Assembly: GCA_044352465.1 (NCBI GenBank)
Contig: JBILDU010000079.1
Coordinates: 1 to 14,523 of the forward strand
Direction: 5' to 3'
DNA length: 14,523 nt
Source: Bdellovibrionota bacterium
GTDB taxonomy: Bacteria; Bdellovibrionota_C; UBA2361
Below, one piece after another: positions 2 through 14,313 of this stretch. The position numbers were made by a program, and so were the translations under genes. The first letter of the stretch is position 1. The number at the start of each line of letters is the position of its first letter. The notes under the pieces were generated by a model. The model was not told the origin of the DNA. It searched no databases and saw only the letters and a list, made by a program, of their open reading frames with translations.

Positions 2-511
2 GTCAAGCCAGGGGGGCGGGCGGCGAGTATGGAGGCGCAACCCAAGGTCGATGAGGATTTCATTCGGGCATTCGTGGAGGACGAGAGTCGGAAGGCAGAG
101 CGGATGCTCTTTACCAAAACGGCGTGCTATTTGTGTCACGAGGTCTCAACGAAGGATGTCAGCGACGATCAGCTTCGTGAGGAGGGGGGGAGTCGATACG
201 AGGTATTAAAGCCCCAGATTCCAGAGGTTTGGATGCCGGAGGCGATCTTTAGCCACGGTGCGCATGAAGAGGTCAGTTGTGAGAGCTGCCATGAGGGTGC
301 TCGAAGCTCAACCCAAACGAGCGACGTTTTGTTGCCAAAGGTCGATTCGTGTCGTACCTGTCATAGCGCTCTTGGTGGGCAGCATCCAACAGGCGGCCAC
401 TCAACGGTGAGGAGCGATTGCATTATGTGCCATTCCTTCCACGAGTCGCTCCTGATGGATCTTGATAGGAAGCATTCGATTGCGGATATCGTCGGCCGTC
501 CGGTGCGGTGA
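2..511 (+). CDS. C-terminal part of a multiheme c-type cytochrome (cytochrome c3/c7-like); 5'-truncated by the window
   Basis: The frame is open from position 2 (VKPGGRAASMEAQ...), so ATG 29 is probably internal. Four CXXCH motifs: CYLCH (125), CESCH (278), CRTCH (350), CIMCH (419). An F-S-H-x-x-H motif (FSHGAH) precedes CESCH, typical of c3/c7-type distal ligands. Stop TGA at 509-511. Confidence 0.9.
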   Translation, partial: VKPGGRAASMEAQPKVDEDFIRAFVEDESRKAERMLFTKTACYLCHEVSTKDVSDDQLREEGGSRYEVLKPQIPEVWMPEAIFSHGAHEEVSCESCHEGARSSTQTSDVLLPKVDSCRTCHSALGGQHPTGGHSTVRSDCIMCHSFHESLLMDLDRKHSIADIVGRPVR

Positions 512-567
512 CCGATGATTCTGTGGGGAAGCTCACGGTGTAGTTTTTGGCGATGGGGCGAGTAACC

Positions 568-2532
568 ATGAAATCCACGTTTGCGCTTGAGTCACTCCGG
601 CATGCTCTTCGGCTCAGTGCTCTGGCGCTGAGCCTCGCTGGGTGTGGGGGCGGAGGCGGCGGTGGTGGTGAAGGGGGCGGTGATTCTCGGGGTGGCTCAA
701 CGAGCGCTGACTTCGGGTGCACCGGCGGTTGTGCCAATCTGAATCTCTCAGCCGATGAGGTGCGTACGATCATAGCGAACGGTGTCCAGGGTGCAGAGAC
801 GCTTGGAACCGCTGCGACTTTCGCCGTTGTCGATCGAGTTGGCAACGTGCTCGCGGTCTATCAGATGGCGGGCGCGCCCGGAGGCGCCTCTATCAACGGT
901 CAGATCGGAGCGACCGGAGGGCTCGAAGGATTGACGGTCCCGGCTACCCTTGCGGCGATTTCGAAGGCGGGAACCGGGGCGTACCTCAGTAGCCAGGGGA
1001 ACGCGTTCTCAACCCGAACGGCGAGCCAGATCATTCAAGAAAACTTTAATCCGCAGGAGCGCAACCAGCCGGGTGGGCCTCTTTTTGGGGTGCAGTTCTC
1101 GCAGCTTTTGTGTGGGGATGTGGTGGCGCACAACTCGGCCGCGGGTGGACGGGGAAGGTTCAATGCCGGTGGCTCCATCGGTCCACGCCCTTTGCCTCTC
1201 GGTCTCTCCGCAGATCCCGGCGGCCTGCCCCTTTATAAGAACGGGGATCTCGTGGGCGGAGTCGGGGTTGAGTTCGACTCCCTTTATACTATCGATCGAG
1301 TGGTTACTGATACCGATGACGATCCCGAGGAGCGGGTGGCGCTTTTTGCGACTCGTGGGTTCGGGGCGCCGTCTGCCCGAACCGCTGCCAATATGAATGT
1401 CGGCGGTAAGGCATTGCGTTTCACGGACCTTGGCTACAACGACCTCGCACTCACTGTCGCCGCCTTGCCGCCGCTCGATCCCGCCGGTTTCGTGCGGGTC
1501 GGCGGATTCACGAACGGCGCGGTGCGTGATGGTGCTGTCTTTGGGGAGCCCTCCTCCGGAGTCGCCAAGACGGCACGTGGAGGGATGCCGGCGGCGATTC
1601 TGGTCGATGGTGGGGGGAATAACCGATTTCCACCACAGAACGGAAGTGTGCTGCCCGGGGGGGCGGAGCTTAAAAGTAACGAGGTTGATGCGCTTCTTAA
1701 CTCGGCCCTGCTGACCGCTTTTCGAGCGCGGGCAGCGATTCGGCGGCCCCTCGACGACGCCGCCCGGGTCTCAATCTGGGTAATTGACTCGACCGGTCGG
1801 CCGCTCGGATTCATTCGGAGCGAGGATGCGCCGGTTTTCGGTATCGATGTGGCGCTGCAAAAAGCTCGGGCCGCGGTTGTTTTTAGTCGGCCGAATGCGG
1901 CTGCCCAGCTCTCCGCAGCGGGCCTTGGGGGTTATGTGGCGGCGGCTCAAGGGGTGCTCGGTAGCGACGCTTTTGCGAACGGTCGGGCGTTTGCGAATCG
2001 AAGTGTGGGGAACTTAGCGCGTCCGTTCTTTGTCGATGGGATCAATGGGAACGGAAACGGCCCCCTGTCGTTGCCCTTTCCCGGTAGCGGAGTAGGGGAG
2101 TCGTGGAGTCCTTTTAATACCGGACTACAGCTGGACTTCGTTTTGGGGGGGCTGGCGGCCGCGTTGGGCGGGGGAGCACCTGCGAGCTGTGGCAACACCG
2201 GAGTGTTCGGCCCGGCTGCGGCGAACGGTATTCAGATCTTTCCGGGCTCGGTTCCACTCTATCGGGGGACAACTCTTATTGGAGCTATCGGGGTTTCGGG
2301 GGATGGAATCGATCAAGATGATCTGATCGCCTTTTATGGGTCAAGTCGTCAGGGACTCGATGACTCGGGTAATGGGGGAGTCGGGGATTCGATGTATGGC
2401 TTTAATGCGCCGATTGAGATTCGCGCCGATGTGCCGGAGCTGTTAGTTCAAGGAGCGCGACTTCGCTACGTCAACTGCCCTGAGGCACCGTTCCGTGGCG
2501 ACAACAGCCAGAACGTATGCGATAGATTTTAG
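568..2532 (+). CDS. Lipoprotein with two GlcG/HbpS-like (Haem_degrading family) domains
   Basis: Signal peptide MKSTFALESLRHALRLSALALSLAG-C has a lipobox LAGC (Cys codon 643-645), followed by a poly-Gly linker. Domain 1: AVVDRVGNVLAVYQM...AISKAGTG...PGGLPLYKNGDLVGGVGV. Domain 2: VSIWVIDSTGRPLG...VALQKARAA...FPGSVPLYRGTTLIGAIGVSGDGIDQDDLIA. The start could instead be TTG 547 or ATG 553. Confidence 0.85.
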   Translation: MKSTFALESLRHALRLSALALSLAGCGGGGGGGGEGGGDSRGGSTSADFGCTGGCANLNLSADEVRTIIANGVQGAETLGTAATFAVVDRVGNVLAVYQMAGAPGGASINGQIGATGGLEGLTVPATLAAISKAGTGAYLSSQGNAFSTRTASQIIQENFNPQERNQPGGPLFGVQFSQLLCGDVVAHNSAAGGRGRFNAGGSIGPRPLPLGLSADPGGLPLYKNGDLVGGVGVEFDSLYTIDRVVTDTDDDPEERVALFATRGFGAPSARTAANMNVGGKALRFTDLGYNDLALTVAALPPLDPAGFVRVGGFTNGAVRDGAVFGEPSSGVAKTARGGMPAAILVDGGGNNRFPPQNGSVLPGGAELKSNEVDALLNSALLTAFRARAAIRRPLDDAARVSIWVIDSTGRPLGFIRSEDAPVFGIDVALQKARAAVVFSRPNAAAQLSAAGLGGYVAAAQGVLGSDAFANGRAFANRSVGNLARPFFVDGINGNGNGPLSLPFPGSGVGESWSPFNTGLQLDFVLGGLAAALGGGAPASCGNTGVFGPAAANGIQIFPGSVPLYRGTTLIGAIGVSGDGIDQDDLIAFYGSSRQGLDDSGNGGVGDSMYGFNAPIEIRADVPELLVQGARLRYVNCPEAPFRGDNSQNVCDRF

Positions 2533-2550
2533 GATCTCGGCTCGAACGGT

Positions 2551-4365
2551 ATGAAAGGGATGAAGAGCGACGGCAGCGTTTTTTTCTTCGGGGTGGTAAC
2601 GCGACTTTTCGGCATCGGCTGTGGGGTATGGCTGGGTTTCGTCGCGCCGGTTGACGCTGAAGAGGGAGTCCCTGCGGCGACACCGGAGGTTCTTGAGGAC
2701 TCGGTTCCGCGCGATTCTCGTCTGCGTCAGCGCCCAGGGGAGGAGTCCAGGCCGGTGCAGTTCCCCCAATACATTTACGAGGTGATTCCAGACATCGAGA
2801 GCTCGGCCTCTGATTTTGCGCCGGTGTTCGATCGGTGGCGACAGTTTTATGCCGGCAAGTGGTACGATCCCTATAATCAGAATGTTTTGAAGGGGGATAT
2901 CCCGGTCTTTGGGGATCCGGCTCATCCGTGGTTCTTTGAGCTATCGATGATTTCGGACACCCTTTTCGAGGCGCGGCGACTGCCTATTCCGGTGGGGGGG
3001 GCCTCGACGGATAAGCCCCAATCGACCGATACGTTTGGCTCGGGAGATCAGTGGGTCGTGGCGGAGAATTTTGTCTTCTCGCTGGTCCTGTTCCAGGGCA
3101 ATACGAGCTTCAAGCCCCAAGATATCGAGTTTCGCGCGGTCCCGGTGGTGAGCGCGAATTATGCTGACGCTGACGAAGATGGCGCGCTCCGGGCCGATCC
3201 CACGCGCGGCACGACCCGTGGTGATAGCCATGTGGGTTTCCTTGAGTTGTTCGCTGATGTCCATTTGGCGAATATCACCGACCGGTACGATTTTGTGTCC
3301 ACCCGGGTAGGTATTCAGAAATTTAATAGCGATTTTCGTGGGTTTATTTTCAATGACGAGGCCCCCGGGGTGCGCTTTTTCGGGAACCACGACAATAACC
3401 TGTGGCAGTACAACCTCGGATGGTTCAATCGACTCGATAAAGACACGAATACCGGTGTGAATACTTTTCACAATCGCTATGAGCAGGTGATGGTGGCAAA
3501 CCTCTATCGGCAAGATAAGCCGGTCTTAGGTCACCAGATTCAAGGTAGTATCGTTCACCGCATCGATAACGCGGGGGACCACGGGCAGCACTACGATAAT
3601 AACGGTTTTCTCGTTCGGCCGGCTGCCATCGGTGATGAGCGGGATAAAAATATCCAATCGACCTATTTCGGGCTTACCGGAGACGGTCACTTCGATCGAA
3701 TCAATTCAACGGCGGCTTTTTACTACGTGACTGGCAGTGAGAGTCACAACCAGATCGCGGGACAGCAGGTCGATATCAACGCGGCGATGGCTGCGCTTGA
3801 GCTCTCGTACGATCGCAACTGGATGAGGTTCCGGACGTCGTTTTTCTGGGCTTCAGGTGACCGCGATCCGTTTGATGGTGATGCTGAAGGGTTCGATGCT
3901 ATTTTCGATGTGCCCAATTTCGCGGGGGGCGATCTCTCGTTTTGGCAACGCCAAGGTATCCCACTGATCGGTGGTGGTGGGGTGAATTTGGTTAACCGGA
4001 ATAGTCTCTTACCGAATCTACGCCCTGGCAAAGAGGAGGGGCAGTCGAATTTTGTAAACCCTGGACTCCGTCTGGTGAATCTCGGTGTTGATTTCGAACT
4101 CACACCGAAGCTTAAGTTGATAAATAACGTGAGCTATCTCCAGTTCGATGACACCAGCTCGCTTGAAGCGGTGCGCCAAGATGGAAGTATCGGTCGAGAC
4201 ATCGGATTCGACATATCGACGGGGCTACTTTATCGACCATTCCTCAATAACAACGTTCAGTTTCGGTTCGGGGGGGCGCTCCTCTTACCGGAGAAGGGGC
4301 TGGAGAACCTCTTCGGTGATAAGCGGCTGTACGATGTATTCACAAACGTAATCCTCCAGTACTAA
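2551..4365 (+). CDS. Predicted outer-membrane beta-barrel protein (porin/export-channel-like), function unknown
   Basis: N-terminal hydrophobic stretch with a probable VDA|EE cleavage site. Many alternating amphipathic strands rich in aromatics, Asn, Asp and Gly (WQYNLGWFNR, STYFGLTGDG, AALELSYD, FRTSFFWASG, LVNLGVDFEL, FDISTGLLY, VQFRFGGALL). Ends in VFTNVILQY with a terminal aromatic residue, BAM beta-signal-like. No CXXCH. Alternative start ATG 2560. Confidence 0.75.
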   Translation: MKGMKSDGSVFFFGVVTRLFGIGCGVWLGFVAPVDAEEGVPAATPEVLEDSVPRDSRLRQRPGEESRPVQFPQYIYEVIPDIESSASDFAPVFDRWRQFYAGKWYDPYNQNVLKGDIPVFGDPAHPWFFELSMISDTLFEARRLPIPVGGASTDKPQSTDTFGSGDQWVVAENFVFSLVLFQGNTSFKPQDIEFRAVPVVSANYADADEDGALRADPTRGTTRGDSHVGFLELFADVHLANITDRYDFVSTRVGIQKFNSDFRGFIFNDEAPGVRFFGNHDNNLWQYNLGWFNRLDKDTNTGVNTFHNRYEQVMVANLYRQDKPVLGHQIQGSIVHRIDNAGDHGQHYDNNGFLVRPAAIGDERDKNIQSTYFGLTGDGHFDRINSTAAFYYVTGSESHNQIAGQQVDINAAMAALELSYDRNWMRFRTSFFWASGDRDPFDGDAEGFDAIFDVPNFAGGDLSFWQRQGIPLIGGGGVNLVNRNSLLPNLRPGKEEGQSNFVNPGLRLVNLGVDFELTPKLKLINNVSYLQFDDTSSLEAVRQDGSIGRDIGFDISTGLLYRPFLNNNVQFRFGGALLLPEKGLENLFGDKRLYDVFTNVILQY

Positions 4366-4373
4366 GGCGGTCT

Positions 4374-7300
4374 ATGGCGGCAGGCGGGCGTACGATGCAC
4401 AGAGTCCTCTGGATTACGATGGCAGTGTGGTTTGCTCTCTCCACTCGTATGGCCGGAGCGGAGAACGCTCCCGTCGTTATGCCGACCGTTGAGGTGATTC
4501 GACCTGGGCTGACCATGGCTCACATGGCCGAGCAGAGCCGCGGTTGCCAGGATTGCCATGTGAAGACCGACGCGCCGACGATGCACCATAATCCCGGTGT
4601 GGTGATCGGATGCGCTGACTGTCACGGGGGAGATCCGCAGGTCCGCGCTGACGGGCTGGCGATGAGCTCTCCCGAATATCAGACCGCGAAGCTGAAAGCT
4701 CACGTACAGCCGAAATATCCGGAGAACTTTCCAACCTCGGCTAATCCGCAGCATACCTATTCGAAGCTCCTCCAAGAGCCCGCCGAGTTTGTCAAGTTCA
4801 TGAATCCGGGGGATCTGCGGGTTGCCCGTGAAACGTGTGGTGGGTGTCACGCCAAGATCGTTCATGCGGTTGAGCGGAGTATCATGACGACGTCGGCGAT
4901 GTTGTGGGGAGGAGCCTCCTATAACAACAATATCTTGCCGTACAAGAATTACGTCTTGGGTGAGAGCTACGATCGAGACGGCCAGCCCCGTTCGATCACG
5001 GCCACGACCGCACCGACTGCGGCAGAAGCGGCACGCGGGGTCTTGCCGAAAATCGTACCGCTCCCTCAATGGGAGGTGGTCAAACCGGGTGACGTGTTTC
5101 GCGTCTTCGAGCGAGGGGGGCTTTTCATCAAGAGCACGTTTCCGGAAATCGGTCTCCCGAATCCTTTCGAGGAGCCTGGCAAGCCAGATATTCGTGCCTC
5201 AAACCGCGGCCCGGGAACGGGCGCGCGGATCTCGGTCCCGGTTATCAATATTCACAAGACGCGGCTAAACGATCCGCATCTCTCGATGCTGGGGACGAAC
5301 GACCATCCGGGGGATTACCGCTCGAGTGGATGTACGGCGTGTCACTCAGTGTATGCCAATGATCGTGACCCCCGACACTCGGGGCCCTACGCGCAGTTTG
5401 GACATGAAGGCAAGACTCAGACGGTCGATCCGACCATTCCAAAAGATGAGGAGGGGCATCCGCTCAAGCATGAATTCACTCGGGCAATCCCGACTTCTCA
5501 GTGCATGGTGTGTCACATGCACCAACCGAATATGTTCGTAAACTCCTACCTCGGATATACGATGTGGGACTACGAGTCCGATGCGCCGAAGATGTGGCCC
5601 GAAAAGCAGAAGTACCCCACCAACGAAGAGCTCTATAAATCCTATTACAGTAATCCCGAAGGGGCCGCCGCCCTCGGTAAATGGTCGGATAAGGACTTCT
5701 TAAAGAAAGTCAGTGAGCTGAATCCAACTCTTAAGGATACCCAGTTTGCTGACTACCACGGTCACGGCTGGAACTTTCGCGCTATCTTTAAAAAGGATCG
5801 GAAAGGTCGTCTCCTCGATAAAGACGATAAACTGATCGATTTCAACGATCCGAAGAAGTTCCAGAAAGCGGTCCATATGGCTGACATCCATGTCGATAAG
5901 GGCCTCCACTGTATGGATTGTCACTTTGAGCAGGACTCGCATAACGACGGCAACATATACGGAGAAGTGGCTCAGGCGGTGGAGATCGGATGTGAGGACT
6001 GTCACGGAACGGTGCAGTCGAAGGCTACCCTTATTACCTCAGGTCCGGCATCAAAGGGGAGAGATCTCAGTCTGATGCGTACTCCCTTTGGCGAACTGCG
6101 CTTTCAGTGGCGGAACGGGGAGCTCTATCAACGCTCAAGCCTCACGCGCGGCCTCGAGTGGCGGGTTGATCAGGTCCGAGATTCGGTAGACCCGCAGAGC
6201 CCGCATTACAACGCGAAGTCGTCGCGCGCGAAGACTGTCGGACGGATCCCGGCGGGGGAGACCGAAGCGGGGTGGGTCGATCTGAAGACGCTCGACGGGG
6301 CGAAAGAGCCGAGTAAGGTGCTTGCTCATGCGAACGAGAATCTCTCTTGTTTTGCCTGTCATAGCTCGTGGGTGACGAGTTGTGCCGGATGCCACCTTCC
6401 GATTGAGGCCAACTGGAAGAAAGAGTCGAATCATTACGACGGGAAGACGACGCGAAATTGGGCGACCTACAATCCGCAGGTGGCACGCGATGACATGTTC
6501 CAGATTGGACGACACGGTCCGGCGAAGAATTTCAAGATCGTGCCGGTGCGGTCATCGAGCGCGCTGGTTTTGAGCTCGACCGATATCAATCGAAACAAGA
6601 TCTATATTCAGCAACCGCCCACCGCGGCTTCGGGGCATAGTTCGCAGGCATTTGCGCCTCATTTCCCTCACACGGTTCGAACGAAAGAAACGAAGCAGTG
6701 TGAGGACTGTCACGTTTCGAAAGCGGGGGACAATAACGCCATTATGGCGCAACTCCTCCTGCAAGGGACGAATTTCGTAAACTTTATGGGGTATAACGCC
6801 TGGGTTGCCACCGGTGATGCGGGACTCGCCGCTGTCCAGGTAACCGAGTGGACTGAACCCCAGGCGGTTATCGGTAGTTTTCTCCATCGGTATGCGTATC
6901 CGGATTTTTATAAGGCGCACGAGGAGAGCGGTCGTGAGCTTAAAGAGTACCACACCCATCACGGGGCGGGTGGGGTAACGAATACGGTGCAGCTGCGCGG
7001 TGAGTATCTTTATTCCACTGCCGGCGAAGGTGGCTTCAGGGTGTACGACGTCGCCAATATAGCGAATAAAAACTTTTCGGAGCGTATTGTGACGGCACCG
7101 GTGTCGCCACTGGGTCAAGACACCCATGTTGACTCCCCGAATGCGACGTCTTTCGCACTGCCGACCAATATGCCGGTAGCGCCGTTTCGAGAGGTCTTGA
7201 AAGAGAATCTGGAGACACCACTGCACGCCATCTATCACTACGCTTTCATCACTGATAGCGAGGAAGGGCTGATCGTGGTGAATGTGGACACCCTCCAAGA

Positions 7301-8084
7301 TGGCGACCCACTCAATAATTTTCTCCGTCGGGCGATAACGTGGAATGAAGGTGGAGTGCTCACAGGGGCGAAGCATATTTCGATGGGCGGCGCGCGCGCC
7401 TATGTCGCGACGGCGGATAAGGTGGTTTTTCTCGATCTCGATGATCCGTTAAAGCCCCGGGTCATTGCGACGTTGCCGTTCAATGCCCCTCGGGCAACCG
7501 CCCTCCAGTTCCGTTATCTCTTCGTCACCGACAAGGATGGATTCCATGTCGTTGATGTCACAAGCCCGGAGAGGCCGATGAAGGTAGCGGGAGCCTCGGT
7601 GCCGCTAAGCGATGCTCACGGAATCTATGTGGCGAGAACGTATGCCTATGTGGCTGGAGGAGCGGAGGGGCTTGTTATCGTTGATGTAGAGAAGCCCCAC
7701 ATCCCGAAGGTGTATATGCGTTTCACCGATGGTGGAAAAATCAACGATGTACGGGATGTGAAGGTGGCGAGCACGAATGCGAGTCTGTTTGCTTATGTGG
7801 CTGATGGAGTGAACGGGCTCAAGGTCCTACAACTTACCGATCCTGATCGTGTGCCGGCGTATTACGGATTCTCACCGGAGGTCCAACCGGAAGTGATTGC
7901 TCATCATAAGACGCATGGGCCGGCGCTTGCGATTTCGAAGGGGCTTGATCGAGACCGGGCAGTCGATGAGACGGGGCACCAGGTCAGCGTATTTGGTCGT
8001 CTGGGGTCTCGACCGTTTACCGCAGAGGAGATGCGCAAGATGTATCTGACGAGGGAAGGGAAGCTCTTTGCCGTCAAGAATTGA
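4374..8084 (+). CDS. Exported decaheme c-type cytochrome fused to a C-terminal LVIVD-repeat beta-propeller
   Basis: Sec-type signal (MHRVLWITMAVWFALSTRMAGA|EN; alternative start ATG 4395). Ten CXXCH motifs begin at nt 4545, 4611, 4836, 5331, 5502, 5910, 5991, 6348, 6381 and 6699. About seven LVIVD-like repeats follow, e.g. YLYSTAGEGGFRVYDV, YAFITDSEEGLIVVNV, YLFVTDKDGFHVVDVTSPERP, YAYVAGGAEGLVIVDVEKP, FAYVADGVNGLKVLQLTDP. Confidence 0.92.
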   Translation: MAAGGRTMHRVLWITMAVWFALSTRMAGAENAPVVMPTVEVIRPGLTMAHMAEQSRGCQDCHVKTDAPTMHHNPGVVIGCADCHGGDPQVRADGLAMSSPEYQTAKLKAHVQPKYPENFPTSANPQHTYSKLLQEPAEFVKFMNPGDLRVARETCGGCHAKIVHAVERSIMTTSAMLWGGASYNNNILPYKNYVLGESYDRDGQPRSITATTAPTAAEAARGVLPKIVPLPQWEVVKPGDVFRVFERGGLFIKSTFPEIGLPNPFEEPGKPDIRASNRGPGTGARISVPVINIHKTRLNDPHLSMLGTNDHPGDYRSSGCTACHSVYANDRDPRHSGPYAQFGHEGKTQTVDPTIPKDEEGHPLKHEFTRAIPTSQCMVCHMHQPNMFVNSYLGYTMWDYESDAPKMWPEKQKYPTNEELYKSYYSNPEGAAALGKWSDKDFLKKVSELNPTLKDTQFADYHGHGWNFRAIFKKDRKGRLLDKDDKLIDFNDPKKFQKAVHMADIHVDKGLHCMDCHFEQDSHNDGNIYGEVAQAVEIGCEDCHGTVQSKATLITSGPASKGRDLSLMRTPFGELRFQWRNGELYQRSSLTRGLEWRVDQVRDSVDPQSPHYNAKSSRAKTVGRIPAGETEAGWVDLKTLDGAKEPSKVLAHANENLSCFACHSSWVTSCAGCHLPIEANWKKESNHYDGKTTRNWATYNPQVARDDMFQIGRHGPAKNFKIVPVRSSSALVLSSTDINRNKIYIQQPPTAASGHSSQAFAPHFPHTVRTKETKQCEDCHVSKAGDNNAIMAQLLLQGTNFVNFMGYNAWVATGDAGLAAVQVTEWTEPQAVIGSFLHRYAYPDFYKAHEESGRELKEYHTHHGAGGVTNTVQLRGEYLYSTAGEGGFRVYDVANIANKNFSERIVTAPVSPLGQDTHVDSPNATSFALPTNMPVAPFREVLKENLETPLHAIYHYAFITDSEEGLIVVNVDTLQDGDPLNNFLRRAITWNEGGVLTGAKHISMGGARAYVATADKVVFLDLDDPLKPRVIATLPFNAPRATALQFRYLFVTDKDGFHVVDVTSPERPMKVAGASVPLSDAHGIYVARTYAYVAGGAEGLVIVDVEKPHIPKVYMRFTDGGKINDVRDVKVASTNASLFAYVADGVNGLKVLQLTDPDRVPAYYGFSPEVQPEVIAHHKTHGPALAISKGLDRDRAVDETGHQVSVFGRLGSRPFTAEEMRKMYLTREGKLFAVKN

Positions 8085-8130: not shown

Positions 8131-8153
8131 GACCCCCAGTTAACCGGGGGGTC
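8131..8153. other. GC-rich inverted repeat between convergent genes (possible terminator or RNA-stabilising hairpin)
   Basis: GACCCCC-agttaaccg-GGGGGTC has 7-bp arms, overlaps the stop codon of the minus-strand glycosyltransferase, and starts 47 nt after the cytochrome operon stop. No clear U-tract on either strand. Confidence 0.3.
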
Positions 8154-8763
8154 TCTCCCAGCCAGCTTTGGTAGAATTCCAGCCCTGCCGCGCAAAGACT
8201 TGGCCTTTGCCGGTATAGGGTAAGCCAGCAAAATGCTCGGGTAGAAAATAGTGTGACGGGTAAATAGTGATGTCGCGGTAGCTCATCCGCCGAATTGTTT
8301 CCGTGAGTCTGCCAGGTCCACGGTATTCCCATGGGAGGAGGTTCCCCGGATATTCCACCCCTATGTCGTGGATGATCTGCCCGATGAGGGGATGTTCGGG
8401 GATTGCGCCAACGATCCCGTTGGCGATGAGCCCGGGGCGTAGAAGTTCGGATTCCCAGCAGGCGAAGACGTCAGGTTCTAAGAGCCAATCTTCAAGGGGG
8501 CGCAGGCATTCGGAGTCAGCATCGAGTGCTATTCCACCAAACTCGTACAGCAGCTCCCATCGCATGCAATCAGCTACTCCGCAGATATGAGTTCCCCAAA
8601 AGTGCTGCATGCGCACCGCGAGTCTCCAGCCGCGCTTCAGGGACTCATTTCCCCAGAGTGTTATCTCGTAGTGAGGGTTAAATTTTCGCCATGTGTCAAT
8701 GAGGGCGTGCGGGGCTTTTGACTGATCGCCTACCCATACGAAGTGGAGTCGCTTTGGGATCAT
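8140..8763 (-). CDS. Glycosyltransferase family 32 (DXD sugar-binding region, OCH1/SUR1-like)
   Basis: MIPKRLHFVWVG N-terminus; IDTWRKFNPHYEITLW; ADCMRWELLYEFGGIALDADSECLRPLE (DXD = DAD); IANGIVGAIPEHP; GPGRLT; IYPSHYFLP. ATG 8763 is preferred over TTG 8784 because family members typically start at MIPK. Confidence 0.9.
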   Translation of the reverse strand: MIPKRLHFVWVGDQSKAPHALIDTWRKFNPHYEITLWGNESLKRGWRLAVRMQHFWGTHICGVADCMRWELLYEFGGIALDADSECLRPLEDWLLEPDVFACWESELLRPGLIANGIVGAIPEHPLIGQIIHDIGVEYPGNLLPWEYRGPGRLTETIRRMSYRDITIYPSHYFLPEHFAGLPYTGKGQVFARQGWNSTKAGWERPPG

Positions 8764-8909
8764 CGGGAGGTGCTTGGCTGGCAAAATAAAAAATGGCTTC
8801 TTAAGTGTAGAGCGACCGAGCCGATTCGTCTACAGTGCGCCCGTGAGCTTTCTGTGTGCGGCTAATTCCGCGGAGCATCATCAGCGCCGACGGAATGGGG
8901 ACGGTGATT

Positions 8910-9734
8910 CTATCGATTGAAATCGAGTACCGCTCGTATTTTGTGTTCTCTCGGCGCGATGGGTGCGATTACCTCAAAGACCGGTGGCGTGCGGTTGATG
9001 TCGGTGTGACGGACGACGAAGGATTGCGTATCGGGTAGCTGCTCGCGATAGCTCTCGATATCTACCTCGAGCAGAATCCCCGTGTTCATCAGCTTGCGAA
9101 CGCGGGGGTCGGTGGTGTCGATTTTGAGCACGGCGAGAAGGTCGTTGGGGCGGTTTTTGGGCCACGGCTGGGCGTACCCCGCTACCCAAGAGAGCTCGCT
9201 CCCCATGAAGAATCCCGGATCGATCTCCAGGAAGTCGGGGAGTTGGCAGATCTCTTGGGCGACGAAGGCGATATCTTCCGGTGACAGCCAGCCGACCTGG
9301 CGTTGTAGCGCGTAGGATAAGCCATTCGTAGCATGGTATAATTTTTGGTCTGGGAAAATCCGTTTGATGCGCTCGAGGTCGACAACTCCAGAGCGCTCAT
9401 AGGAGAGATCGAAGTAGGTTCTAATCTCGCCGTACTCCTGAGCTGTCAGGCGTCGATCGAGGGGGAGCGCCGTGATGCCTTCCGGGCGGTACCCGCGAGA
9501 GGAGAGAAGTTCTCGTAGCGGGGCGAGTATGTCCTCGGGGAGAATAAGGTCTGCTGTAGGGCCGAGAGTTATCTCGGGTGAATGCCCCTTGCCTCCGACC
9601 AGGGCGGCTCTTTTGACAGCGGAGAGGATGGATTCCTCGTCTCCCTGTGACGGGTCCTCGCCCCCCTCGCGGGTTAGGCGCGCCATCCGCTCGATGGAGC
9701 GATAGTTTTGTTCGATCCGTGTCTCTGCCATCAC
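8910..9734 (-). CDS. Hypothetical protein; C-terminal half has an ADP-ribosyltransferase-like (H-Y-E clade) motif pattern
   Basis: 274-aa ORF with natural-looking composition (start GTG 9734 or ATG 9731). Motifs in order: KLYHAT, PGFFMGSELSWVAGYA, LAVLKIDT, QSFVV. The CDS call is fairly secure; the ART assignment is tentative. Confidence 0.65.
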   Translation of the reverse strand: MMAETRIEQNYRSIERMARLTREGGEDPSQGDEESILSAVKRAALVGGKGHSPEITLGPTADLILPEDILAPLRELLSSRGYRPEGITALPLDRRLTAQEYGEIRTYFDLSYERSGVVDLERIKRIFPDQKLYHATNGLSYALQRQVGWLSPEDIAFVAQEICQLPDFLEIDPGFFMGSELSWVAGYAQPWPKNRPNDLLAVLKIDTTDPRVRKLMNTGILLEVDIESYREQLPDTQSFVVRHTDINRTPPVFEVIAPIAPREHKIRAVLDFNR

Positions 9735-10031: not shown

Positions 10032-10679
10032 CTATACTCCTCGATTGGTCCATTTGGTCTCGTCGCCGCGCGGGGTGCAGTAACCTTGTAGATCGTCGAG
10101 TTGGGCGCGGGTAAGAGTGAGCGGGGTAGCCTCGTGCGCGCGGCCTTCCGACGACGGAGCCGTGTTCCGTTCGGCGATGCGATTAAACTCCATCGTGGCG
10201 TCGAGGAGGGAGGCGTGGAGAGCCGGTAGGTGTTCCTCGATCGGCGACCTTGTCTCGTACGCCATTAAGACCTGTTCGAGGCAACGCTGAAGATCTAGTA
10301 ACTTCCCCCAAGCGCGGTCGAACGCACGTTCATCAAGTTGATGCAGCGAGCTCATTCTCGTTGGAGTCGCGGAGAACTCTCTTACGATGGCGAGAAGTTC
10401 CGGCTGTGCCGCGCTGATATCCTGAACAAGTTTGGGTAGATTTTCAGCCGCGACAGACAGAGGGGTGAATTGATCGGTCATGGTGGTTAGGAGAGAACGT
10501 ACTCGGTCGACGGAGGAGTCTCTTTGAGCCAGCGCGTTCTCTTGGCTTGTGCGCTCTGCGCAAGCGACGACTGCTCGTGCTATCGAGGGGCAGAGGCCCT
10601 CAAGCGACTGATCGGTGAGGGTGTCAGAAGCTGCGTGTGTCGGGGGTGTGGGGTGATGTGCGTTATTTGGCTGCATCAT
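10032..10679 (-). CDS. Hypothetical, predicted alpha-helical protein
   Basis: 215-aa ORF with a GAGGGAG Shine-Dalgarno-like sequence 9 nt upstream of the ATG. Pro/His-rich disordered N-terminus, then amphipathic helical segments. No recognisable family motif. Confidence 0.6.
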   Translation of the reverse strand: MMQPNNAHHPTPPTHAASDTLTDQSLEGLCPSIARAVVACAERTSQENALAQRDSSVDRVRSLLTTMTDQFTPLSVAAENLPKLVQDISAAQPELLAIVREFSATPTRMSSLHQLDERAFDRAWGKLLDLQRCLEQVLMAYETRSPIEEHLPALHASLLDATMEFNRIAERNTAPSSEGRAHEATPLTLTRAQLDDLQGYCTPRGDETKWTNRGV

Positions 10680-10856: not shown

Positions 10857-11708
10857 TCATCGGGACGTTTTCGGGATGCGGGTGGAGGGTCTGGCACGTT
10901 TAGGTATTGGGAGTGCTGGCTCCTCACCAAAGCTGTACGAGGTCACAACGATCTTCGCACCACTCTGTCCGTCAAGCTCCACTGCTTCGGTAGTGTCTTT
11001 GTCAAAAGCTGCGAGGTAGCCCCGGACACGCTGATGAAATTCCCTCCCGTTTTCAAGGATCCAACGCTTAATCTCAGGGAGTTTGTCGACAGGGAGGTTG
11101 TCGTACGCGGTTTTGAGATGGAGATTGCGCGGGTCTGGATTGAGAAGCATGTTTTCTTCGGCAGAGCGGAGGCAGCCCTCGAGGTTGGTTTCAACGATCT
11201 TCGTGGCGCGGTCGATATCCCCTGGGATGAGGGCCTCGCGCTTGATGAGACGGACCATGTCATCCTCAACCACGACGAGTCCCGCTCGTTTGAGTTCAGC
11301 CAAGATAGTTCCGTCATGAGTATCTTTACTCACGGAGTAGACAAGTTTACTGAACTCATTTCCTTTAACTTTCCAGCCGAGGGGCCGCGGTTTTTTTGAG
11401 CTATCGAGAAATTTTGGCGCGGTTTCCCACTTGCTGAGTACCCGGGCCACCAGGCTGGCGCTGTATTCGCTTGGTTGGTGTTTGCCCTTGAGGTACTCGC
11501 TAATCTCCCGGCGATAGAGCCCCGTCATGACACTGATGCGGCTGATGTTGACCTTGCGGCCCTTGTTTACCATCTCCTCTTGGGCAGCCTCGATGAAAAG
11601 CTCTTTGCCGATGACGATCAGGTCGTGGATCGAATAGCCATGGCGAAGGAATGCCCGGATGATCGGTTTTAGGTAATGCCGTATCTGTTCCTTCGTCAGT
11701 ACCGCCAT
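10857..11708 (-). CDS. DUF6502-like protein (putative HTH/winged-helix DNA-binding protein)
   Basis: The pattern LKPIIRAFLRHGYS...KELFIEAA...NISRISVMTGLYRREI...ARVLSKW...PRPL...FSKLVYSVSKD...ILAELKRAG matches my recollection of DUF6502 proteins. ATG 11708 has an upstream GGAG and lies downstream of the predicted promoter. Confidence 0.8.
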   Translation of the reverse strand: MAVLTKEQIRHYLKPIIRAFLRHGYSIHDLIVIGKELFIEAAQEEMVNKGRKVNISRISVMTGLYRREISEYLKGKHQPSEYSASLVARVLSKWETAPKFLDSSKKPRPLGWKVKGNEFSKLVYSVSKDTHDGTILAELKRAGLVVVEDDMVRLIKREALIPGDIDRATKIVETNLEGCLRSAEENMLLNPDPRNLHLKTAYDNLPVDKLPEIKRWILENGREFHQRVRGYLAAFDKDTTEAVELDGQSGAKIVVTSYSFGEEPALPIPKRARPSTRIPKTSR

Positions 11709-11751
11709 TTTGTTTCTCTCCGCAAAGAGGTGTATCGGCAAAAACTGGTAA

Positions 11752-11780: not shown

Positions 11781-12004
11781 TGGGGGTATTCCGCTGGCTT
11801 TAGGGCGAATTGGTTTGATTCGGGTCTTGTTAGGGTACTTCAGGTACGTCGGGCGCCTCCGCTACGGTACGGTATCTGCGCGGCCATCCTGGCCGCACTC
11901 GGATCTCGGCCCCAAAATCTCTGGCAGGTAAAAAAACTTTTTTAGCGGAACACGAAAGGGCTATTTAAACCCAGTTATGCGGGGCGTCTTGTGGTGTCGA
12001 AACT

Positions 12005-12032
12005 TTCCAACATGGCGTTACTCTGCTACTTT
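12005..12032 (+). promoter_or_regulatory. Possible extended -10 sigma70 promoter for the PHP-like/pyruvyltransferase genes
   Basis: TTCCAA-16 nt-TACTTT with TGn directly before the -10, 30 nt upstream of ATG 12063. Confidence 0.3.
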
Positions 12033-12062
12033 CGGAGGCTTAGTTGTTGGTTTAGCTCGGTT

Positions 12063-12920
12063 ATGTTGCTCGTCGCAGATACCCACGTTCATATTTATCC
12101 GTCCTACAATCTTGAGGTAGCGCTGGGTGCCGCCTTCGAAAACTTGGGGCGTCTGGCCGGTCAGGCCAGCGGTGGAGTTGTTCGTGTTGCTTGCCTAACG
12201 GAGCGGCATGATTGCCACATGTTCAAAGCCCTACGGGGTGGCAACGTTCCCCTCGATCCCCGTTACTCTTTGCATCATCACGGTGACGAGGTGTTAATGG
12301 TGGCGCGTGATGGGGGGGAAGAGCTGCTCCTCCTCGTTGCGGGCAGGCAGATCGTCACTCGCGAGCGGCTTGAGGTATTGGCTCTCACCACCGATGCGGA
12401 GATCCCGGACGGTCTCGCAATCGGGGAGGTGCTCGAGCGAATAGGAGGGGCAGGGGGCGTCCCGGTCCTCCCATGGGGTGCTGGTAAGTGGTTGTTTGGT
12501 CGTGGAAGAGTGATTCGCCGGGTATTGAACGCGGCCCAAAAAGCGACCTTGCTCGTGGGGGACTCATCTCTTCGCCCAGCGGGATGGGGTGAACCTGGAA
12601 TCATGAGTTTGGCGCGCTCGCGTGGTATACGGGTGGTTGCTGGCTCGGATCCGTTACCTGTCCCCGGAGAGGAGCAACGGATCGGGACGTATGGAATACT
12701 CGGAGAGTACGATTTCAACTGGCGCGATCCGCTCGGTTCGATACGTGGCTTGCTGCTCGAGTCGCCGAGTCTACGGACGGTTGGTGAGCGGGGAGATGTA
12801 CGGACCGTATGGTCGCGTCTTATGGCTCATCGGCGGATGAAAAGGGGAGGCTGTGACCGAGGAGGTGGGGCATCGCCGGTCGGCGGCCATCGAGGAGTTG
12901 TTGAAGTGCCGTGTGCCTAG
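12063..12920 (+). CDS. PHP-fold (polymerase/histidinol phosphatase-like) protein with a degenerate metal site
   Basis: ADTHVH (D-x-H-x-H), CLTERH, AGRQIVT, EVLAL, GGVPVLPW and VVAGSDP occupy the positions of the PHP motifs DxHxH, TDH, GxE, H, aHP and GSDxH. ATG 12063 is preferred because DxHxH normally lies at the extreme N-terminus. Confidence 0.7.
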   Translation: MLLVADTHVHIYPSYNLEVALGAAFENLGRLAGQASGGVVRVACLTERHDCHMFKALRGGNVPLDPRYSLHHHGDEVLMVARDGGEELLLLVAGRQIVTRERLEVLALTTDAEIPDGLAIGEVLERIGGAGGVPVLPWGAGKWLFGRGRVIRRVLNAAQKATLLVGDSSLRPAGWGEPGIMSLARSRGIRVVAGSDPLPVPGEEQRIGTYGILGEYDFNWRDPLGSIRGLLLESPSLRTVGERGDVRTVWSRLMAHRRMKRGGCDRGGGASPVGGHRGVVEVPCA

Positions 12921-13068: not shown

Positions 13069-14313
13069 ATGGTTCATTCAGTGACACTTTTGGGCTCCTC
13101 GTCAGGTCGTAACGCCGGTGATGCTGCGCTCATCTCGGGGATAATGGAGTCGGTCGATGCCGCGTTAGGACGGTCGTTGGTATATGAAATCCCGACGATA
13201 AAGCCTGATTTTGTGCGCTCCAGTTATCCAAATCGGGTGGAGCCGATCTCGATGCTGCCCTGGAGTGGTTCGCTAAAGATGTTAGGGATTCCCACCTATC
13301 GTTCGATTATGCGAACCGATCTTTCGCTTATTTTTGATGCAATTCTCTTCGATCGACAGCTCTATAACCCGCTTTTTAATTTTCTGTCGACGCTGGCGTT
13401 GATGTTACCGATGGCGAAAAAACGGGGGAAGAAGCTGGGGTTCTTTAACGTTGGTGCGGGCCCGGTGACGACGCCGCGGGGGCGCGAGATGCTACGACGC
13501 TTGGCGGACTCGATGGATTTTATCACCGTCCGCGATCAGAGCTCGTATAATATTCTGATGGATATCGGAGTGTCGAACCCACGGATTTTGGTAACGGCCG
13601 ATGCCGCGTTGAACGTGACTCCGGCGCCAGTTGAGCGGGTTGATGCGATTCTACGTTCACATGGACTGACGCCAGGAGAAGAGATCTTGGCGATAAATAT
13701 TAGTAAGTATCTCGATACATGGGCAGGTGCGACAGCATCTTCGATGGGTAAGGAGCGTTTTCTGAATGAGTATAGCGCCGCGCTTGATACGGTGGCGAAA
13801 CAACTTGATGTGCCGATGTTGTTTGTCTGCACGCAACACCACGATATCGAGGTGACGCGTGAACTGATGATGCGGGTTACTGCGGCGGAGCGTAAAGCGC
13901 TCGTAACAAACCGAGAGTGTTCCCACTACGAGATCCACGGTATTTTGGGGCGGGTCGCGTTGCTTTTTGGAATGCGGCTCCACGCCACTATCTTGGCGTC
14001 CTCGCTGCTTACTCCGGTGCTGGCACTGCCCCATCAGCCAAAAGTGGCCCATTATTTTAAGACCCTTGGATTGGATGAGTATGTTCTCACCTTCGATAGG
14101 TTTAGCGCGGCATCGCTGGCTGAACATATCCTGAAGGGCTGGGCGGAGCGGCCTCGGATCTCCGCCCTCCTCAAGCAGTTCATTCCCCCCAGTAAGAAGC
14201 GAGCGCTGAAAGCCTCTGAGCTCGTGCTTGCGATCGCTCGTGGGGAGGACCTCGACGCCGCCGTCGCGCGCCTCAAGAATGACGCGATCCTCTCCGCCGC
14301 TCAACTCGGCTGA
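13069..14313 (+). CDS. Polysaccharide pyruvyltransferase family protein (WcaK/CsaB-like, GT-B fold)
   Basis: LLGSSSGRNAGDAAL, NVGAGP, FITVRDQSS, VTADAAL, LFGMRLHATILA and PVLALPHQPKV match the NxGD, GxGP, vRD, aDxa and mRLH motifs of PS_pyruv_trans proteins. Confidence 0.9.
   Translation: MVHSVTLLGSSSGRNAGDAALISGIMESVDAALGRSLVYEIPTIKPDFVRSSYPNRVEPISMLPWSGSLKMLGIPTYRSIMRTDLSLIFDAILFDRQLYNPLFNFLSTLALMLPMAKKRGKKLGFFNVGAGPVTTPRGREMLRRLADSMDFITVRDQSSYNILMDIGVSNPRILVTADAALNVTPAPVERVDAILRSHGLTPGEEILAINISKYLDTWAGATASSMGKERFLNEYSAALDTVAKQLDVPMLFVCTQHHDIEVTRELMMRVTAAERKALVTNRECSHYEIHGILGRVALLFGMRLHATILASSLLTPVLALPHQPKVAHYFKTLGLDEYVLTFDRFSAASLAEHILKGWAERPRISALLKQFIPPSKKRALKASELVLAIARGEDLDAAVARLKNDAILSAAQLG

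Follow-up and report, generated by a model that had tools for sequence, protein, structure and literature searches.

A predicted two-module redox chain with a lipoprotein, barrel and decahaem-propeller outer part in a Bdellovibrionota genome

The 14,523-nucleotide stretch analysed here (the window) is the entire contig JBILDU010000079.1, or C84, of a Bdellovibrionota bacterium (assembly GCA_044352465.1, G000 below; 3.13 Mb, 170 contigs, 95% complete), and its start falls within a gene. Its left end holds four co-oriented genes (genes 1 to 4; Table 1), which encode a fragment of a multihaem cytochrome, a lipoprotein with two GlcG/HbpS domains, a predicted outer-membrane β-barrel and a decahaem cytochrome with a β-propeller. 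As a first-pass annotation made from the sequence alone had described, short gaps of 18 and 8 nt separate genes 2 to 4, and the four genes carry 4 + 0 + 0 + 10 = 14 CXXCH motifs. All cysteines of genes 1 and 4 sit in such motifs, and 5000 residue shuffles of each protein yielded at most two CXXCH for gene 1 and one for gene 4. Export signals, judged by eye and pattern rather than by a predictor, were found in all three complete genes, as the same annotation had proposed: a lipobox in gene 2 and signal-peptide-like N-termini in genes 3 and 4. The genome has two PF01578 matches, to cytochrome c assembly proteins, and its remainder holds a single frame with at least three CXXCH besides the seven-gene cluster described below.

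Reading gene 1 as a tetrahaem protein proved wrong, as it is the C-terminal piece of a split FHA-decahaem whose N-terminal piece lies at the end of contig C4. Between the two contigs, whose ends show no exact overlap, the assembly lacks about 16 profile positions. The first-pass annotation had predicted an electron input upstream, and C4 indeed carries genes for a two-haem membrane protein and for a protein with FAD, cyclic nucleoside monophosphate (cNMP) and Fe-S domains (the flavoprotein), together with a gene for a c554-like tetrahaem cytochrome. We refer to genes 2 to 4 as the trio.

Table 1. Features of the window and of contig C4 of the same genome. ORF, open reading frame; aa, amino acids; pLDDT, predicted local distance difference test.
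Feature	Position	Strand	Remarks
Gene 1, FHA-decahaem C-terminus	2-511	+	ORF, 5'-open; 169 aa, haems 7-10; PtdG/PCC4-decahaem-like, membrane-anchored (predicted)
Gene 2, twin GlcG/HbpS (DUF336) lipoprotein	547-2532	+	ORF, 661 aa; PF03928; lipobox LAGC, Cys33; ATG 568 a possible alternative start
Second GlcG domain, K439, S584, D591	1861-2319	+	Align with EfgA pocket K57/S114/D121 (6BWS)
Gene 3, 18-strand outer-membrane β-barrel (model)	2551-4365	+	ORF, 604 aa; AlgE/Occ(OprD) fold; no Pfam family
Barrel loop L7	3853-4065	+	71 aa; 26 positions at least 90% conserved (100 rows)
Gene 4, decahaem cytochrome c with C-terminal 7-bladed LVIVD β-propeller	4374-8084	+	ORF, 1236 aa; signal-peptide-like N-terminus
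Multihaem region of gene 4	4545-6713	+	10 CXXCH, residues 58-780
Gene 4 residues 246-282	5109-5219	+	Conserved; unstructured in monomer model (pLDDT <50)
β-Propeller of gene 4	6789-7949	+	Residues ~806-1192
DXD-type glycosyltransferase	8140-8784	-	214 aa; PF04488, PF05704, weak N-terminal PF12919
ORF	8910-9734	-	274 aa; no Pfam/NCBIfam family above cut-off
ORF	10032-10679	-	215 aa; no Pfam/NCBIfam family above cut-off
DUF6502 protein	10857-11741	-	294 aa
ORF with DTHVH motif	11991-12920	+	309 aa; no Pfam match
Polysaccharide pyruvyl transferase	13069-14313	+	PF04230
FHA-decahaem N-terminus	C4:2-1186	-	395 aa; FHA-like domain and 6 haems
Two-haem membrane protein	C4:1196-2014
Flavin/cNMP/Fe-S protein	C4:2011-4371		PF00027 twice, Fer4 families
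c554-like tetrahaem	C4:4804-6087		Divergent from the other inner genes

To place the cluster among other genomes, we collected 96 loci around gene 4 homologues (L011-L106), in which some genomes appear twice and kin are not independent, and clustered their ORFs into seven recurring families, with profiles built from the same loci. Consistent with the linkage that the first-pass annotation had assumed, the lipoprotein and barrel genes precede the decahaem-propeller gene in all 85 loci with at least 2.3 kb of upstream sequence. Lipoprotein, barrel, FHA-decahaem and membrane protein stand together in 63 of the 66 loci with at least 6.5 kb upstream, the three misses coming from two genomes with the inner genes on other contigs, and all seven genes are present in 26 of the 27 loci with about 10 kb on either side. 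The tetrahaem and flavoprotein genes vary in position. A reciprocal search of metagenomes with the membrane protein returned the same cluster on all long-enough contigs except two (L140 and L184), which hold inner genes only, and among 41 related genomes gene 4 was found in 23 and the membrane protein in 24, including all 23.

The distribution extends well beyond the source lineage. With the centre genome counted each time, 17 of 301 genomes in the class of an alphaproteobacterial record (G041) have the barrel, all of them within the 20 that have a close membrane-protein match; the figures are 12 of 301 around a gammaproteobacterial record (G042; the unpublished G382 included), 18 of 151 in the phylum of an Acidobacteriota record (G044) and 2 of 151 around a myxococcal record (G045). 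Barrel and decahaem-propeller genes are adjacent in all 14 loci drawn from the Acidobacteriota and myxococcal sets, and the lipoprotein is present in 13 of them, the 14th lying near a contig end. Other 4-, 8- and 9-haem cytochromes lie alongside in six of these loci, and the five such genomes tested all encode a distant homologue of the membrane protein. Named carriers include Sphingobium (S. herbicidovorans MH), Sphingopyxis, Parahaliea, Fontimonas and Sediminihaliea. In S. herbicidovorans the outer genes (tetrahaem, lipoprotein, barrel and decahaem-propeller) stand in one group and the inner genes in another, convergent with it, and a Sphingopyxis plasmid carries the four outer genes with no inner genes within 14 kb.

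Some loci have further neighbours. Genes for FHA proteins, PP2C phosphatases and Ser/Thr kinases lie directly downstream in L052, L067, L082, L089, L098 and others, mostly from Halieaceae; a glutamate dehydrogenase gene lies upstream of or near the cluster in L052, L059, L082 and L209; and a conserved ORF of ~150 aa lacking a Pfam match sits between the FHA-decahaem and lipoprotein genes in L201, L200, L206 and L207, all from the alphaproteobacterial class.

Gene 3 matched neither Pfam nor NCBIfam. The first-pass annotation had taken its 604-aa product for an outer-membrane barrel, and the monomer model bears this out with 18 long strands (mean pLDDT 89; predicted template modelling score, pTM, 0.86). 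The best fold match was AlgE (Z 27.5; root mean square deviation, rmsd, 3.0; 367 residues aligned), with Occ/OpdQ channels at Z ~25, a Foldseek E value of 1.8e-17 to 3RBH and an Atlas feature score of 0.95 to an alginate-export cluster. Gene 3 has the 18-strand monomeric barrel fold in common with AlgE and Occ at 14-16% identity, but PF13372 is missing (it is carried by 1 of 120 listed homologues) and its neighbours are redox genes, not alginate genes. With loop sides assigned by strand order, mean conservation was 0.84 in L3, 0.79 in T8, 0.74 in L7, 0.69 in T1, 0.67 in T3, 0.66 each in L4 and the N-terminal segment, and 0.43-0.59 in the remaining outer loops; L3 and L7 are thus the two most conserved outer loops, and T1 and T8 are periplasmic turns. 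In AlgE and Occ proteins, L3 and L7 form the constriction. The first-pass annotation had left two functions open for the barrel, and its predicted AlgE/Occ-like 18 strands together with the conserved L3 and L7 fit a substrate channel better than an electron conduit. Among the homologues, four barrels bear an N-terminal AMIN domain, and a single one (L231:9107-11464, minus strand) has a cytochrome c3-like tetrahaem domain fused N-terminally; both kinds of fusion point to the periplasmic face of the barrel.

Gene 4 had been described as a decahaem protein with an LVIVD propeller, which agrees with its ten CXXCH and with a Pfam scan passed by LVIVD and several multihaem families. The monomer model is one compact protein (pLDDT 90.6, pTM 0.92), whose propeller resembles a 7-bladed design (Z 20.5, rmsd 2.2, 269 aligned) and the YVTN propeller 1L0Q (Z 20.1, rmsd 2.3, 276 aligned). 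Propellers filled the fold matches of the whole model, so that the haem part was not covered by that search; cd1 nitrite reductase and N2O reductase were among these many matches, and we did not take them as functional evidence. The haem part gave only generic multihaem look-alikes in the Atlas, and gene 4 had no match to solved structures at E 0.1 by sequence and marginal ones by profile (NrfB, E 0.0045). In 97 full rows of a 122-row alignment, conservation reaches at least 96% for each of the ten CXXCH and at least 90% for 17 other His, which exceeds the number of His required by ten haems. Haems are sparse, at 121 residues per haem. The conserved residues 246-282 are a candidate partner-binding segment, judging by the model. 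The family numbers at least 8000 sequences at E 1e-20, a threshold passed by all scored candidates, with ~42-60% identity among full-length representatives of 50%-identity clusters; the nearest named relatives (~66-73% identity) are mostly labelled Bdellovibrionota/Bdellovibrionales.

The first-pass annotation had further envisaged a physical complex spanning the envelope. A complex model of the barrel with gene 4 residues 41-525 scored 0.41 (runs 0.02, 0.56 and 0.41), against 0.01 for the best of three controls; contact agreement among the runs was at least 0% and partner pLDDT at least 77. In calibration, 116 of 157 solved pairs passed the mark, as did 2 of 215 mismatched pairs; both of these mismatches and 18 of the solved pairs had scores of 0.60 or less. 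The models lend weak support to a physical association of the barrel with gene 4, and the larger complex is supported to that extent.

Gene 2 matched the HbpS-like family PF03928 with 65.4 bits (cut-off 25), which together with its lipobox is consistent with the earlier reading as an HbpS-type lipoprotein. A lipobox-like motif is present in 58 of 67 distinct homologues, some of the others having a plain signal peptide. Across 67 full rows, Cys189, 548, 644 and 658 are invariant, and no column has a majority of His. Compared with GlcG, HbpS, PduOC and EfgA, gene 2 has two domains of the same family, the second of which keeps the EfgA pocket residues, but the tandem arrangement, the large insertions and the lipid anchor set it apart, and it has no conserved His comparable to the haem ligand His18 described for PduOC. 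HbpS and EfgA are described as sensors, and GlcG-family proteins are tied to aldehyde-forming pathways.

On the inner side, the FHA-decahaem has a hydrophobic segment ahead of its haems, as read from the sequence, and a degenerate FHA-like head (the S/T-x-N-G-T motif is missing in 50 of 53 homologues). The N-terminal part of the flavoprotein is a TrxR/YpdA-like FAD-NAD(P)H domain (Pyr_redox) with the GxGDxA motif in 44 of 52 sequences and the CxxC in none of them. The binding pattern is fitted by both cNMP cassettes in 30 of these flavoproteins and by a single one in another 15. All 52 have 16 Cys in the tail, which by inference bind four [4Fe-4S] clusters. The membrane protein carries two HX13H motifs, with four invariant His, in all 51 rows; the W of WX3HX13H is present in both motifs in 42 rows, as is SGxxG, and in the G000 copy the W of the first motif is replaced by C. 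A sequence search of structures found no meaningful solved relative of it. Three unrelated pyridine-nucleotide modules occur beside the cNMP/Fe-S unit, namely TrxR-fold here, FNR-fold in ptd-type loci (see below) and NuoEF-like in L227, where the diaphorase gene immediately precedes the cNMP/4Fe-4S gene beside the outer module (L227:16010-19851). This recurrence suggests a link between the chain and the pool of pyridine nucleotides.

Two observations concern the tetrahaem gene. A small HD-domain protein (L107:6156-6839, minus strand, on contig C4), which adjoins it and whose homologue flanks the cluster in seven related loci, may hydrolyse cyclic nucleotides as a phosphohydrolase. An apparent decahaem-tetrahaem fusion in L101 was rejected, the join being a run of Ns.

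In gene content the cluster recalls two named systems. PCC4 (He, Barco, Emerson, Roden 2017, PMC5566968) comprises a porin, 4-, 5- and 10-haem cytochromes, a WX3HX13H membrane protein and redox genes, and ptdABCDEFG (Elbon et al., bioRxiv 10.1101/2023.11.21.568154) has the same inventory; both are proposed to be extracellular conduits, and the accessible text of neither study contains a test of that function. Common to our cluster and these systems are the membrane protein (two HX13H, SGxxG), the periplasmic tetrahaem and decahaem, a cNMP and Fe-S protein encoded upstream of the membrane protein, a pyridine-nucleotide flavoprotein and an outer-membrane barrel. Our inner-protein profiles scored 46-82 bits (membrane protein), 48-74 (tetrahaem), 41-88 (decahaem) and 174-219 (cNMP/Fe-S) against ptd-order loci, of which L188, L189, L191, L193, L194 and L199 have every gene in the ptd order. 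On the other hand, the flavin domain has a TrxR fold here and is fused to the cNMP/Fe-S part, whereas PtdC is a separate FAD_binding_6 + NAD_binding_1 + Fer2 protein; the decahaem has an FHA-like head; and the twin GlcG lipoprotein and the decahaem-propeller are added. Profile searches of G000 (95% complete) gave no match to a PtdC-type FNR oxidoreductase, and none at E 1e-10 to PtdA, a pentahaem with a C-terminal β-sandwich that we identified through the gene-for-gene match to the text of the paper, not its sequences. Gene 4 and PtdA have only a CXXCH stretch in common (32 columns of a single haem motif at 32% probability), and the barrel has no detectable likeness to PtdB (hhalign, 100 versus 11 rows; probability 0.3%, E 0.19), although the two barrels may have a remote ancestry in common.

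The 301-genome sample that gave the 20 strong membrane-protein matches also gave 12 weak ones, and the pentahaem was found in 10 of these 12 genomes. Besides the 17 genomes with our barrel, the strong matches comprise G308, with a lipoprotein gene cut at a contig end; G159 (L205), in which PtdA and PtdB lie directly beside this cluster's type of inner module and tetrahaem; and G261, which has PtdAB at another site of the same 3.07 Mb contig and no barrel of the gene 3 type that we could find. From the last two genomes, this looks like one inner module with swappable outer cassettes, the trio or PtdAB. G235 and G332 have a gene 3-type barrel plus partial PtdA matches, so the cassettes are not strictly exclusive. 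In a quick tree of 44 membrane proteins, the two PtdAB-paired rows fall among the rows of this cluster at a fork without resolution, and the ptd-type rows are on a long branch with L190 (support 91), where L190, like L204, is an out-of-frame row and meaningless. The L190 locus itself (G176) is PCC3-like, with a distant homologue of the membrane protein, a stand-alone TrxR-fold flavoprotein and cytochromes with 24, 55 and 33 or more haems.

By sequence, then, the inner half is homologous to PCC4/ptd, and the outer trio is made of different parts whose role is undescribed. The first-pass claim of a distinct system accordingly holds for the trio and fails for the inner half. The literature we searched, with most subscription papers and the ptd supplement outside it, held no description of a lipoprotein-barrel-decahaem-propeller trio, and the PCC4 supplements, covered mostly as captions, did not contain GlcG, FHA or Pfam terms. 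The "porin-scaffold-cytochrome" system EET1 of peat Acidobacteriota/Terriglobales (bioRxiv 10.64898/2026.05.27.727921), whose genes are not listed in the main text, could overlap the acidobacterial form.

The barrel of MtrCAB, PioAB and MtoAB is likewise encoded beside decahaem cytochromes, but 28 strands are predicted for MtrB versus 18 in our model, and our cluster includes its cytoplasmic flavin/Fe-S input. The 50 fold matches listed for gene 3 do not include MtrB. The DmsE/MtrA profile TIGR03508 gave 22 of 192 bits with the gene 1 piece and no match with gene 4 or a full-length gene 1 homologue, in keeping with the first-pass view that this is not a known conduit of that kind. The Geobacter extHIJKLMNOPQS cluster (PMC5877670) may serve as a works-like precedent for the layout: it combines several multihaem cytochromes with a porin of the solute type, an accessory protein, a cytochrome b and an Fe-S protein, and its proposed role is the import and reduction of a small oxyanion. 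ExtM (NF040943) was the best NCBIfam match of gene 4 (E 5.8e-23), but its 81 bits stay below the cut-off of 800. ExtI is similar to phosphate porins, gene 3 to AlgE/Occ; ext has a rhodanese instead of GlcG; and no NAD(P)H/cNMP input is described for it. For a Tenderiales LVIVD protein, the accessible part of the source gives no description as a cytochrome.

We consider it somewhat probable that the seven genes form a two-module redox chain whose outer part is a periplasmic redox enzyme under a selective pore. The TrxR-fold domain would accept electrons from NAD(P)H, which would cross the four [4Fe-4S] clusters to the two-haem-b membrane protein and from there reach the membrane-anchored decahaem wire in the periplasm; the flow may be gated by the two cNMP-binding domains, which lie between the flavin part and the Fe-S part. 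Such outward flow is favoured by the membrane potential. In the outer module, genes 2 to 4 with the tetrahaem, the chain would end in the decahaem-propeller as its redox enzyme. This protein and the lipoprotein would dock from the periplasm onto a narrow pore selective for its substrate, through which a small molecule would enter or leave; either this molecule or an intermediate may be bound by the GlcG domains. A barrel of the channel type whose periplasmic face is conserved, a cytochrome that is highly conserved and sparse in haems, and a lipoprotein with a pocket for a small ligand fit a periplasmic enzyme better than a wire.

Several points weigh against this proposal. In 14 further, mostly acidobacterial gene 4 sequences, only 11 of the non-CXXCH His are invariant (12 if one gap is ignored); with ten needed, the surplus is one or two. 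The K/S/D pocket is common across the GlcG family and hence names no ligand. Relatives of the same membrane protein serve the giant 24-55-haem cytochromes of L190 and PCC3, which are wire-like. He et al. (PMC5566968) read the membrane protein as quinone-active with inward flow. Finally, P0403, a barrel lacking the last strand and signal peptide that is joined in frame to a decahaem-propeller, would, if real, place the cytochrome outside; it is a single record and was not used as support. Two other apparent barrel fusions, P0404 and P0342, have junk junctions, look frameshifted and were rejected.

An extracellular conduit is unlikely, although it is the best of the alternatives. Here the barrel would insulate a short haem chain, such as the N-terminal haems of gene 4, and the propeller or the lipoprotein at the surface would use electrons derived from NAD(P)H to reduce metals, humics or other cells. 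The porin and multihaem layout, the proposals made for PCC4 and ptd, the N-terminal haem half of gene 4 being the part in the weakly scoring complex, LVIVD/YVTN propellers in surface proteins and the P0403 record are in line with it, as are the acidobacterial variants beside 9-, 9- and 4-haem cytochromes and the two P0250 records, in which 18 extra N-terminal haems make a total of 28; this extension resembles the acidobacterial 9-haem proteins weakly (22-28% identity, best E 6e-8). However, the barrel has fewer strands than MtrB and solute channels as its closest folds, its conserved 71-residue L7 would compete for the lumen, and a lipobox-like motif for surface anchoring is found in only 7 of 85 gene 4 homologues. 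Moreover, none of the carriers Sphingobium, Sphingopyxis, Parahaliea and Fontimonas is known as a metal reducer.

It is quite improbable that the chain runs inward, with the outer cassette oxidising an imported small donor and the membrane protein passing electrons to quinone or NAD(P)+. This would agree with the flow to the quinone pool that He et al. propose for the homologous membrane protein, with PCC4 in some iron oxidisers (PMC5566968) and with the aldehyde-forming pathways of GlcG relatives, but a dedicated NAD(P)H module has been kept in three unrelated forms. Transfer to NAD(P)+ would in addition oppose the membrane potential and require a donor of very low potential. Redox sensing, in which an outside ligand or the haem redox state would be relayed to cNMP- or phosphorylation-linked partners inside with little bulk flux, is very improbable: the cNMP cassettes, the FHA-like domain, the sensors HbpS and EfgA and the FHA, Ser/Thr kinase, PP2C or HD-domain genes that each flank 5 to 9 of the 96 loci would suit it, but 24 c-haems, two b-haems, four Fe-S clusters and a flavin far exceed sensing needs, the seven genes encode no DNA-binding or kinase output domain, the FHA-like heads mostly lack their motif, and the signalling neighbours are confined to single lineages.

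The rest of the window (Table 1) lies downstream of gene 4. The glycosyltransferase gene is convergent with the cluster and is not a conserved neighbour, and the DTHVH motif of the 309-aa ORF hints at a metallohydrolase of the PHP-like kind.

The decahaem-propeller family is large and spans several phyla; for its haem part we found no solved relative, and its function is undescribed. To judge by its gene partners, electrons from NAD(P)H may reach the outer membrane by a route that second messengers control. More tentatively, the trio could be a pore-coupled redox enzyme of a new class, whose multihaem fold is unsolved and whose reaction is undescribed, and could be carried as an exchangeable cassette on a cyclic-nucleotide-gated NAD(P)H wire, and that wire, with PtdAB as a second, unrelated cassette, could be a general, quinone-independent means of delivering cytoplasmic reducing power to the outer membrane in thousands of ordinary bacteria. 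One inner module with two unrelated outer cassettes also offers a handle for testing PCC4 and ptd. Metagenome studies count these systems as candidates for extracellular electron transfer or iron oxidation, and care is needed there if the barrel is a solute pore. Cultured carriers such as Sphingobium herbicidovorans MH, Parahaliea, Fontimonas and Sediminihaliea make the question directly testable.

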